Shown here: in pieces, positions 1-33,598 of the stretch | Position numbering within the stretch: position 1 is the first letter of the stretch | Layout: the number at the start of each line of letters is the position of its first letter | DNA from: a virus | Length of the DNA: 64,000 nucleotides | Virus record (IMG/VR): IMGVR_UViG_3300007735_000793 | Span: 33,067 to 97,066 of that record | Strand: one strand, 5' to 3' | The notes under the pieces: model-generated | The model's database searches: none | Told to the model about the DNA's origin: nothing | What the model saw: the letters and a program-made list of their open reading frames with translations, nothing else | Position numbers and translations under genes: made by a program

Positions 1-929
1 GAACTCATAAACGATAATACATCTGCGCCAACCCCTAAAAATATATCTTCAAATGGTCGAATATTATCTTTTGATATTTTTTGATGATCATTCTTATCCA
101 CACCCTTCGCCCACTCTAATACCTTATCCGATTTTATGTTGTTACTATTTAAGACAAAACTTTTGTCGTAGAATGCCCATCTTTTTATCAAACCTTCTCG
201 TGTAAATTTATCTAATTTTTCGGGTGAGTTTTTATCTATGTATTCACCCCACCACGCCTGATGATATTCTGCCATACCATCACTATCTTTTAAACCATAT
301 TTTGATTGTAGTTTGTTTAACATCCCCAAATACTTTGATTGTAATTTTTCCAAGTTTATTTCCTTTGGTAGCTGTGTAATAGGTGGTCCTTGTATTGTGT
401 ATTTATCCTGCACATTCTGATTGATTTGTTTAATCATTCCCGCTAATACCTTTGCATCAGATTGGTCTGCCCCAATCGCAACACCGGATTCATCGTATTC
501 GGTAGTGTTGTGAAACACCAAAAGAGCCTGACCATAAGGTATTACATTTACTGATGTTGGATATATCACTTCCAAATTCATAAACTTTGCACCCTGTTTG
601 AAAATCTTATCCCTTTGTGCTTTTGATAATCGCTTTATTGCCACTTCTAAATCCCGCATAGCAAAGTTGTAAGCATCAGTTAGCCCACCCCTACCTCCGA
701 ACTTTGAAGCAACATCTGCGGCGTTCATTGCGTTTTCACCCCGATTAGCAAGGTGTCCTTTGTTTCTTGCGGCAATTAACCCCTTATCATCTCGCCAACT
801 AATAGCAAGTGCCTGTCCATCTGTATTATGAACCAATATACCATTTGCGTAATAACATGAAAAATTATCAACTTTTATGTCATACCTGGTCTGAACTTTG
901 TTTACTGGTTTTATTGATTTAATTTTCAT
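1..929 (-). CDS. C-terminal half of fractured gene: 35-aa IntC followed by C-extein (ATP-dependent ligase-like/DUF6267-like domain); runs off window
   Basis: Manual translation from ATG 929: MKIKSIKPVNKVQTRYDIKVDNFSCYYANGILVHN/TDGQALAISWRDDKGLIAARNKGH..., open to position 1; absent from ORF track because truncated. Confidence 0.9.
   Translation of the reverse strand, partial: MKIKSIKPVNKVQTRYDIKVDNFSCYYANGILVHNTDGQALAISWRDDKGLIAARNKGHLANRGENAMNAADVASKFGGRGGLTDAYNFAMRDLEVAIKRLSKAQRDKIFKQGAKFMNLEVIYPTSVNVIPYGQALLVFHNTTEYDESGVAIGADQSDAKVLAGMIKQINQNVQDKYTIQGPPITQLPKEINLEKLQSKYLGMLNKLQSKYGLKDSDGMAEYHQAWWGEYIDKNSPEKLDKFTREGLIKRWAFYDKSFVLNSNNIKSDKVLEWAKGVDKNDHQKISKDNIRPFEDIFLGVGADVLSFMS
825..929 (-). 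other. Split intein C-fragment (IntC), Thr at +1
   Basis: Block F/G motifs YDIKV..., YYANGILVHN/T; Lys-rich N-terminus. Confidence 0.92.
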
Positions 930-941
930 AGTTTATTTCCC

Positions 942-2516
942 TCAAAGTGTTTTCAATTCCATATCTTCGGTCAAATCTTTAGCCTGAACATATCCTATAC
1001 CATCTACATACATTCTATGATTTGGGGTTACTTGAATGGTTTTACCATCTTCCATTTCGATTTCTAACCACTCATCAGTATCATCGTTATTAAAATATGC
1101 TATAACATCCATAAATTCACTATTTCCAGTTTCTTCATTAAATGATAATACCGAATCGGTAAGTTTATTATCTACAAACTCTGATATGGGTATATTTCCA
1201 TTATTTTTAGTTTGTATAACACTATCACCCGCTATGCACTTTTCTCGAGTTAATTCCAAATCACCTTTTAAGGCCTTTGCTATTATGTTTTTTAAATCAC
1301 CAAAAGTTAAACCCAACTCTAAATCAAACGGATGATTCATATGACCGTATGCCCCGCCTTCTGTCAAATAATCGTTGAACTTTCTACCAATTCTTTCTAA
1401 TAACTTATATTGCTTTCTATCTATTACTTCTAATTTTTTTCCAATCACCCATTCAACAACCTCATATCCTAACCCCCTAAATACTTCCTGCAACTCCTTG
1501 TCCTCTACACCAGTAATATCAACCTCTACTTCGGGTGGAGCTTCAGGTGGTGCAACATCCAATGGAGTAGTAGCAATATCAGCAGTTACATAATCTTCCG
1601 TTTCGGGTATATCTAAAAGGTCATCCATTGTGAATACCTTTCTTCTACTTGCATATTGATAAAAATCACCCGTACCTTTTGCCGATTTTTTAACCATCGC
1701 ATCTGCTTTTGGAAACTCTATTTGTGTATATCCACCACTAACAAACCAATAATCGTTTTTTTGCGCATCTTTACCCAAACCCAATACTCGTTTTTTACCT
1801 GGCGGAACATAAATTGCATCAGGCTCACCTGGATCTGCACCATATCCACCTCCCAATGATGATTCAATAAGGGGAATTAAATTATACTTACTGAAGAAGT
1901 CTGATATAATTTCGTTTACTCCACCCAGCTTTTGGGTTATCATATTGTATATTTTTGGATTAAATTTTGGATATGCTTTTTTAAATCCCCCTTTTCTTTG
2001 TGATTCATCTCCCGCTGATAACCATTTTCTTACATCCGTTCCACTTATTGGATTTGGTTGAGCAGGTGATGTATAAACATAACCACTTTCTTCATATCCA
2101 CTTACAGGTTTAAATCCGGCACCACTATGAAATTTTTTGAAATATTTACCACCTAATCGTTGTGCATCTTTTTCCCCTACCACAGTTACAAATGCCGTTG
2201 TTTGAGGTGAAAATCCACTTAATATTTCAATTGGATTATATGGGTTTTTTACCTGCACTACCTTATTCTTTGGAATATTAAACATTGTAGTCATTATTGT
2301 TTTTTTCTCCAAAAAATTAAAGGGGTCTTTAGGTCCACCACTTTTGTTGGATGTCCCAATCCAAACGGCATCCTTACCAAACTTTTGAACTAAATGTGAA
2401 TAGGTAGCATAATGCCCCTTATGGAAAGGTTGAAACCTACCCGCATATACCACCACTATATCTTTGACTTCTTCGGTTAATATCTCTTTAACCCATTCTT
2501 TTATTAAATTTCCCAT
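942..2516 (-). CDS. N-terminal half of fractured gene: cytidylyltransferase-like (HxGH) domain + start of ligase-like domain + IntN
   Basis: AGRFQPFHKGH and ISGTDVRK motifs; EGGAYGHMNHPFD...TREK then intein CIAGDS. Confidence 0.88.
   Translation of the reverse strand: MGNLIKEWVKEILTEEVKDIVVVYAGRFQPFHKGHYATYSHLVQKFGKDAVWIGTSNKSGGPKDPFNFLEKKTIMTTMFNIPKNKVVQVKNPYNPIEILSGFSPQTTAFVTVVGEKDAQRLGGKYFKKFHSGAGFKPVSGYEESGYVYTSPAQPNPISGTDVRKWLSAGDESQRKGGFKKAYPKFNPKIYNMITQKLGGVNEIISDFFSKYNLIPLIESSLGGGYGADPGEPDAIYVPPGKKRVLGLGKDAQKNDYWFVSGGYTQIEFPKADAMVKKSAKGTGDFYQYASRRKVFTMDDLLDIPETEDYVTADIATTPLDVAPPEAPPEVEVDITGVEDKELQEVFRGLGYEVVEWVIGKKLEVIDRKQYKLLERIGRKFNDYLTEGGAYGHMNHPFDLELGLTFGDLKNIIAKALKGDLELTREKCIAGDSVIQTKNNGNIPISEFVDNKLTDSVLSFNEETGNSEFMDVIAYFNNDDTDEWLEIEMEDGKTIQVTPNHRMYVDGIGYVQAKDLTEDMELKTL
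945..1238 (-). other. Split intein N-fragment (IntN, 98 aa)
   Basis: Block A CIAGDSVIQT, block B TPNH, acidic tail, stop with no endonuclease domain or block F/G. Confidence 0.92.
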
Positions 2517-33004: not shown

Positions 33005-33598
33005 TTATAATGTAGGTGCTGATTGAATAAATGTTCCTGTTGTTACTTCTTTTGTTATAGTAACAGGTATCTCAAGTCTTGCACCAGTTTCTTCACCAAC
33101 AACAATTATTCGGGTAGTTACTGTATTAGTCGATAATGTATTGGCAGGAGAGAATGCAAATTGGTCAGTTCTACCACTTACCATTCTTAATGTTCCTGCC
33201 GTATCATCCAATAAAACAACAAAATAAGATGTGTTTGAATCTGTTGGATTTGATGTTAATGTTACAATTGTTTCATTAACTGTACCGGTGTTAGATATGG
33301 GTATTCTGATTTCACTAACGTTTGCGATAATAGATGGTATTACATCTACCGTTGGGTTTAAGGTTAGCAACTTACTTTTAAATGCATAATTTTCATCAAT
33401 AATTGCTTCAAAAACAGGTAGTTGTTCTATAAAAACTCCCGGATTATTTTGCGTTGTATCCCATAATGAATAATCTATTTCATCATCCCCCAAAGCAAAT
33501 TTTGTTATTTGGAATGGCTTTCCACTTGCAATATACTGCCTACCTAATTTGGTAAGAACTGCATCAATCGTTGTTTCGGTTTTATCTAAATATCCCAT
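33005..33598 (-). CDS. Baseplate/tail structural protein
   Basis: DAVLTKLGR...ITKFALGDDEIDY. Confidence 0.6.
   Translation of the reverse strand: MGYLDKTETTIDAVLTKLGRQYIASGKPFQITKFALGDDEIDYSLWDTTQNNPGVFIEQLPVFEAIIDENYAFKSKLLTLNPTVDVIPSIIANVSEIRIPISNTGTVNETIVTLTSNPTDSNTSYFVVLLDDTAGTLRMVSGRTDQFAFSPANTLSTNTVTTRIIVVGEETGARLEIPVTITKEVTTGTFIQSAPTL

Follow-up and report, generated by a model that had tools for sequence, protein, structure and literature searches.

Natural split inteins have been known in phage metagenomes since 2009. The subject of the present analysis is an intein of this kind, located in a 64,000-nucleotide stretch of viral DNA (positions 33,067 to 97,066 of the IMG/VR record IMGVR_UViG_3300007735_000793, whose full length is 97 kb; this whole stretch is referred to below as the window), where its N-terminal and C-terminal halves (IntN and IntC) divide the gene of a ligase-like enzyme into two adjacent genes. 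The best solved relative is the NrdJ-1 split intein from the GOS metagenome (8ubs), a class 1 intein of phage origin with Cys1, a canonical split site, an acidic IntN and a basic IntC. The window intein has all these properties in common with NrdJ-1, while the identity between the two is only ~35% and the host of NrdJ-1 is a ribonucleotide reductase instead of a ligase-like enzyme. Unlike gp41-1 from the same GOS set of fractured genes, which combines Cys1 with Ser+1 (PMC11766414), the window intein has Thr+1. The latter is also found in the natural split intein Neq Pol of Nanoarchaeum equitans, which likewise has an IntN of 98 aa and an aligning IntC end (...HN/TD, with the slash at the splice junction); in contrast to the window intein with its Cys1 and adjacent genes, Neq Pol starts with Ser1, is encoded at distant loci and is thermophilic. 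The original prediction for this DNA, made from the sequence alone, had called the Thr nucleophile unusual: Thr+1 is indeed present and is the least common +1 nucleophile, yet it is an ordinary one, since the Cys1/Thr+1 pair accounts for ~12% of inteins and Neq Pol also makes use of Thr+1 (PMC11766414).

The second group for comparison is that of the fractured genes described by Dassa et al. 2009 (PMC2677866): phage genes divided in place by a split intein, with a free-standing endonuclease gene between the halves. The 3' end of this endonuclease gene overlaps the IntC start by 6–69 bp, a feature to which the authors gave emphasis. The model proposed in that work includes a loss of the endonuclease (step III), which was seen at locus gp41-7, an adjacent split intein without endonuclease. 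The window gene is split in place in the same manner and lacks an endonuclease gene like gp41-7, while in its relatives a homing endonuclease gene (HEG) between the halves overlaps the IntC start by 11 nt. It differs from the loci of Dassa et al. in the host protein and the insertion site, both of which are new, and in that all stages are visible here at one site; the intein allele, ~35% identical to the nearest solved intein, and the host family are new as well. The literature searches turned up no prior description of either the window intein or its host.

The reading that we favor, with a probability of about 0.88, is that of a functional natural split class 1 intein of the NrdJ-1 type (98 + 35 aa, split at the canonical loop) in a phage gene for a two-domain enzyme, present at the endonuclease-loss stage. 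The enzyme, ~785 aa in length, is predicted to consist of an N-terminal NMNAT/cytidylyltransferase-like domain and a C-terminal nucleotidyltransferase domain with an RNA-ligase fold. The whole locus is on the minus strand and includes the following features (coordinates are window positions):

942..2516, minus strand: N-terminal fragment gene, 524 aa (N-extein of 426 aa and IntN of 98 aa, then TGA), from the list of open reading frames (ORFs) and translation
2025..2450, minus strand: cytidylyltransferase-like (HxGH, NMNAT-like) domain, N-extein residues 23–164, from Pfam, PHROG and NCBIfam
1239..1409, minus strand: first ~57 residues of the ligase-like domain (GGAYGHMNHPFD ... LTREK), from alignment with intein-free homologues
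1239–1241, minus strand: codon of the predicted motif-I Lys, intein position -1, at the end of ...LELTREK; K55, invariant in the homologue alignment
945–1238, minus strand: IntN, 98 aa, starts with CIAGDS and ends with ELKTL, from Pfam, the 8ubs match, intein alignment and charge
1236–1238, minus strand: codon of Cys1, block A (CIAGDS), directly after Lys-1
930..944, minus strand: stop TGA (942–944) and 12-nt in-frame spacer, GGGAAATAAACT, from the sequence; the same in loci L206 and L207
825–929, minus strand: IntC, 35 aa, starts with MKIKSI (ATG at 929) and ends with ILVHN, from blocks F and G and the His-Asn end
822–824, minus strand: codon of Thr+1, first residue of the C-extein TDGQALAISW
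1..824, minus strand: C-extein, 359 residues, 274 of them inside the window (ARNK motif, motif III (NLEVIY), helical insert), from AlphaFold and fold searches on homologue P0039

The spacer proper (930–941) reads GGG AAA TAA ACT, with TAA as a second in-frame stop. The C-terminal fragment gene, 394 aa in full (L001:1245–2429), extends past the left window edge, beyond which motifs IV/V (EGIVF ... KLTG) of the C-extein are located. Each intein half is encoded in a separate ORF fused to one extein, with the original order and orientation kept. The charges of the halves are complementary: IntN is acidic (21 Asp/Glu versus 6 Lys/Arg, net -15, pI 4.05) and IntC is basic (6 Lys/Arg versus 2 Asp/Glu, net +4, pI 9.6). 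Both the coordinates and the anatomy given in the original prediction (the two halves, the two stops and the 12-nt spacer) proved exact on the minus strand, and the opposite charges that it reported were borne out by the calculation.

The assignment to inteins, also made in that prediction, was supported by several profile searches. IntN matched the Pfam families Hint, Intein_splicing and PT-HINT, while IntC matched positions 122–155 of Intein_splicing (PF14890). With the halves joined in one frame, the PF14890 score reached 45.9 bits versus a cut-off of 35.8, close to the 44.2 bits of P0017, a contiguous allele of the same intein, while either half alone scored under the cut-off. The best solved relative of IntN was NrdJ-1 with an E-value of 3.8e-10, followed by the DnaE inteins at ~5e-5, and IntC could be aligned to the Neq Pol and DnaX inteins at their C-terminal ends. 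The fold was tested on the contiguous homologue P0017, whose intein is 76% identical to that of the window, rather than on the window's own halves: its AlphaFold model has an all-beta domain with the HINT fold at the intein, which fitted NrdJ-1 (8ubs) with an E-value of 8e-10, a TM-score of 0.80, a root-mean-square deviation of 2.6 Å and 35% identity, as well as gp41-1 (TM-score 0.84) and Npu DnaE (TM-score 0.86).

The class 1 residues are all present in the window: Cys1 in block A (CIAGDS), TPNH in block B, the His-Asn end and Thr+1, and the same residues were kept in all nine aligned intein alleles. Their strict retention across diverged alleles argues against the possibility that the halves act as a dimerisation device only, with the two fragments working as a non-covalent complex without splicing, similar to the intein-less fractured NrdA of phage Aeh1. 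Fractured phage enzymes are known to assemble in this way (PMC3045599), and the halves, being oppositely charged, would be drawn together even without splicing; the unspliced HINT domain of 133 aa, however, would separate K from DG of motif I, and this alternative was judged very improbable.

The intein halves are also under purifying selection. Estimated from a protein-guided codon alignment, the ratio of nonsynonymous to synonymous divergence (dN/dS, omega) of the intein was 0.12–0.18 against the endonuclease-bearing relatives, at a synonymous divergence (dS) of up to 0.9, which would be indirect support for protein splicing by the window intein. The omega of the host ligase-like domain was similar, at 0.09–0.15 when one member of the pair was the window and as high as 0.29 in the remaining pairs. 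The dS of the intein was consistently below that of its exteins (for example, 0.14–0.25 versus 0.79), which fits a lateral spread of the element by homing. Of the 120 related protein clusters (90% identity), 22 consist of C-terminal fragments that open at the Met with which the window IntC begins and that possess the IntC of 35 aa and the HN/TDG end. These values bear on a further alternative, a decaying locus in which a contiguous mini-intein has acquired nonsense mutations and turned into a pseudogene, with ORFs that have no functional product. Contiguous alleles do exist, and the in-frame spacer is near the loop length of these alleles (7 versus 8 codons), as point mutations in a cis-intein would give. 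Against it stand the purifying selection on both intein halves and both exteins (omega 0.08–0.19), a split point identical to that in 12 endonuclease-bearing loci and in the 22 protein clusters, an IntC that keeps its own ATG, and the presence of the allele in three assemblies, a few substitutions apart elsewhere and without further damage. Overall, decay seems a highly unlikely explanation.

The junction between the halves is real, neither a chance occurrence nor a sequencing error. A degenerate junction pattern run against a metagenome collection recovered the identical junction, TTTGAGGGAAATAAACTATG, in two independent metagenome contigs, OGWD01000440.1 and OGVY01000525.1 (L206 and L207), whose proteins differ from those of the window at few positions and which have the same endonuclease-less arrangement. 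The exact junction pattern was not matched in IMG/VR, where the window's own record is possibly masked. An assembly or sequencing artefact, a legitimate concern with a metagenome-derived viral contig, is effectively refuted by this recurrence in two more assemblies. Scarcely any more credence was given to a stop-codon read-through or an alternative genetic code, by which the locus would encode a contiguous, cis-splicing intein. The 12-nt spacer does leave IntN and IntC in one frame, but recoding would have to affect two distinct stops, TGA and TAA, and in the relatives the halves are in different frames, 779–958 nt apart. Under the standard code, ORFs of at least 120 aa cover 86% of the window, with 45 of these 46 ORFs on the minus strand, and they are terminated by all three stops (TAA in 36, TGA in seven and TAG in three cases). 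Since the standard code fits and all three stops are in use, read-through of two different stops is not credible.

The intein-free homologues showed what the spliced product would look like. At ~60 of the 80 IMG/VR loci of the first scan they run through TREKTDGQALAISW unbroken, in some cases with a 93%-identical C-extein, and a further scan gave the same outcome. The motif is also unbroken as REKTDGQ in the uncultured huge phage LR756508 and as EKLDG in the Microcystis phage Mel-JY01 and in LR756500. The N-extein (426 aa) and the C-extein (359 aa) add up to ~785 aa, while the close intein-free alleles are open frames of 787–794 codons. Because of the unbroken TREKTDGQALAISW and the matching length, the predicted spliced product corresponds to a natural protein, and the alignment with homologues proposed together with the original prediction gave the expected product. 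On this comparison, the intein sits between the Lys and the Thr of motif I and splicing would restore the motif (EK/TDG). A predicted catalytic Lys at the intein junction is a position that was called rare in a published survey (PMC4760082).

The most plausible mechanism would proceed as follows. The two adjacent minus-strand ORFs would be co-transcribed and translated apart, the second from its own ATG located 12 nt past the first stop. The acidic IntN and the basic IntC would then associate into one HINT domain, in which an N-S acyl shift at Cys1 would be followed by trans-esterification to the hydroxyl of Thr+1, cyclisation of the terminal Asn and an O-N shift, joining Lys-1 to Thr+1 with a contiguous motif I as the outcome. 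Since neither fragment alone has a complete active site, activity of the enzyme should depend on trans-splicing.

Four allele states occur at this one insertion site: intein-free, contiguous mini-intein (three protein clusters), split intein with a free-standing HEG (12 loci) and split intein without HEG (the window and two contigs). The contiguous alleles P0017 and P0034 have ELKT-TEVGILN-IKSI at the place where the window has ELKT-L(stop)GK(stop)TMK-IKSI, and in P0211, a distant host protein of 1,245 aa, this site is occupied by a contiguous mini-intein with 45% identity. A search of IMG/VR with P0017 returned intein-free loci only. The 12 IMG/VR loci with HEG (L005–L012, L023 and L165–L167) have the same IntN stop and IntC start as the window, and the gap between them is filled by an ORF of 244–304 aa, whose last 11 nt overlap the IntC start. 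This ORF matched the PHROG homing-endonuclease families 12131 and 3339 and Pfam DUF7487; it did not match PDB sequences, and no assignment to the Vsr-like/EDxHD family was obtained. In the window, a free-standing endonuclease gene is absent between the halves and only the 12-nt spacer is present. The absence of an endonuclease noted in the original prediction is, therefore, correct for the window itself, while 12 related loci do carry one at this exact spot; nor is the endonuclease-less arrangement as atypical as supposed there, with its precedent in gp41-7 and step III (PMC2677866).

The window locus matches the endonuclease-loss stage (step III) of the 2009 fractured-gene model. We infer the following direction of the evolutionary steps at the locus: a mini-intein at the site would have been split by a free-standing HEG, which the close relatives still hold, and this gene would later have been lost in the window lineage, so that the stop, the spacer of 12 nt and the start remained. 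For the contiguous alleles, the simplest explanation is that they are un-invaded target sites of the endonuclease. A bolder version, which appears doubtful to us, would make the window a caught intermediate of a reversible cycle at one site and its host an undescribed, trans-splicing-gated family with the RNA-ligase fold. In such a cycle, a cis mini-intein would undergo endonuclease invasion and fracture, followed by endonuclease loss; the remaining 12-nt in-frame spacer would be two point mutations away from a re-fused contiguous intein, and P0017 and P0034 would be re-fused revertants instead of never-invaded sites. The intein of P0017 and P0034 nests inside the diversity of the split inteins, because it is closer to the split intein of L165 (85% identity) than the latter is to that of the window (72%). 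If true, the cycle would be the first natural evidence of split inteins reverting. The simpler succession of invasion and endonuclease loss remains our preferred reading of the locus.

Two further inteins are present in the same viral record outside the window. The gene of the large terminase (TerL) is also fractured (G000:C1:23342–26617, locus L212): its first ORF, TerL-N (274 aa), closes with a 30-aa IntN after ...QECD and is followed by a free-standing endonuclease gene of 246 aa that overlaps the next ORF by 11 nt, while the second TerL ORF opens with a 113-aa IntC before CDFISSG. The TerL intein is atypically split, as in AceL/GOS TerL. Over the C-terminal ~90 residues, the TerL-locus endonuclease (L212:1489–2229, minus strand) is almost the same as the endonuclease of one ligase-gene locus (L005:1459–2373, plus strand) and shares 57% identity with that of another (L007), while the N-terminal halves differ. 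From these alignments, the endonucleases of the TerL locus and of the ligase gene look like modular proteins with a common nuclease domain and different targeting parts. The third intein is contiguous (G000:C1:29285–32623, minus strand, locus L208) and lies close to the N-terminal end of a protein with a length of 659 aa or more; it starts with CVPLDS after ...FDVYP, ends with ...TGN/SAYANAW without a penultimate His, and its Pfam Intein_splicing score of 27.2 bits is under the cut-off.

The host protein starts with a cytidylyltransferase/NMNAT-like HxGH domain (PF01467, 31.1 bits versus a cut-off of 21), which also matched PHROG 395 and 3041 ('cytidyltransferase') and, weakly, NMNAT families in NCBIfam. 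The C-terminal ligase-like module has ~415 aa and gave no match to any Pfam or NCBIfam family, but it is matched by 1,791 clusters at 50% identity; among the best 150 of these 1,791 clusters, it mostly forms the C-terminus of proteins of 400–1,900 aa. The N-terminal partners of the module include HD (PF01966), cupin (PF07883), PF18905 and cytidylyltransferase domains, in proteins of up to ~1,930 aa.

The ligase-type motif of the original prediction was substantiated by both sequence conservation and fold. In 28 homologues down to 39% identity the invariant residues were K55, D57 and G58 (K-x-D-G), A-R-N, E139, H159, E385-G386 and K397, of which E139 (NLEVIY), H159, E385-G386 (EGIVF) and K397 (K-L-T-G) resemble motifs III, IIIa, IV and V in position and pattern rather than by a residue-level structural alignment. 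A conserved motif, GGAYGHMxHPF, is present upstream. The AlphaFold model of the intein-free homologue P0039 (pLDDT 87.7, pTM 0.83) had RNA ligases as its top Foldseek matches (best E-value 2.3e-3), namely the Rnl3 enzymes of P. pacificus and P. abyssi, Rnl1 and Rnl2 of T4, and Trl1. With VIA-align, the top ten matches were all ATP-dependent ligases (rows 1–8 and 10 RNA ligases, row 9 a DNA ligase) with Z-scores of 6.9–8.8 and 168–208 aligned residues coming from both ends of the model; these ends are parted by a helical insert of ~200 aa, and motifs IV/V form the extreme C-terminus. The domain thus resembles the ATP-dependent RNA ligases T4 Rnl1, T4 Rnl2, the Trl1 ligase domain, NgrRnl and T. 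brucei REL1 in its adenylyltransferase-domain matches (Z 8.1–8.8), the invariant K-x-D-G, the motif-III-like E, the EG and the motif-V-like K. It differs from them in having no sequence-profile similarity, in the ~200-aa helical insert between motifs IIIa and IV/V and in the upstream GGAYGHMxHPF. With this model, the assignment of the C-terminal domain to the ligase-fold covalent nucleotidyltransferases is well supported, and the motif-I Lys would be the residue that becomes adenylylated.

Two leads on the identity of the host domain were discarded: the matches of its profile to the ribosomal protein eS6 in PDB were spurious and Lys-rich, while hmmscan did not confirm the ESM Atlas lead 'DUF6267' (about one-quarter of the cluster members), of which the literature search found no mention. 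In the uncultured huge phage LR756500, a 653-aa ORF (L004:4115–6076, plus strand) is located directly downstream of a stand-alone ligase-like gene of 421 aa; it has an N-terminal ENLDG, with Asn at the place of the motif-I Lys, and a C-terminal HxGH cytidylyltransferase-like motif. To judge from these motifs, the two adjoining genes are possibly paralogues that differ by a reversal of domain order.

Several points weigh against the favored reading. The host domain matched no ligase in the Pfam, NCBIfam, PDB profile and single-sequence PDB searches, and the ligase assignment is carried by moderate fold matches (Z about 8–9, Foldseek E-value about 2e-3) together with the motif conservation. With Thr at +1, the oxyester chemistry tends to be slower than with Cys or Ser. 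The start of IntC translation is uncertain because GAGG, a possible Shine-Dalgarno site lying across the IntN stop, is 10 nt from the IntC ATG, and among the 45 gene starts that were examined in the window, such a motif was seen upstream of only 12. A scan for promoters and terminators around the junction gave sites no more numerous than in shuffled sequence. A TATTTAT-like motif was observed within ~15 nt of the ATG at several window genes (for example, those with starts at 2516, 43575 and 52555, minus strand), including the N-fragment gene; the GC content of the window is 35%.

For protein engineering, the compact intein (98 + 35 aa) with its Cys1/Thr+1 pair and native junction REK / TDG is a candidate orthogonal partner to Npu DnaE, gp41-1, NrdJ-1 and IMPDH-1, on account of its ~35% identity to NrdJ-1, the nucleophile pairing and the junction, and the near-identical natural cis version is a possible control for it. 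For intein biology, the locus brings together all stages of the fractured gene at one site in closely related freshwater phages, and because one site shows every stage, both the steps of the model and the target of the endonuclease are directly testable. For phage enzymology, it points to a large, unannotated module with the predicted RNA-ligase fold, often fused to NMNAT-like, HD and other domains. If the bolder version holds, this module would represent an undescribed family of RNA-ligase-fold proteins (~1,800 clusters at 50% identity), in which trans-splicing would gate the enzyme at its catalytic lysine.

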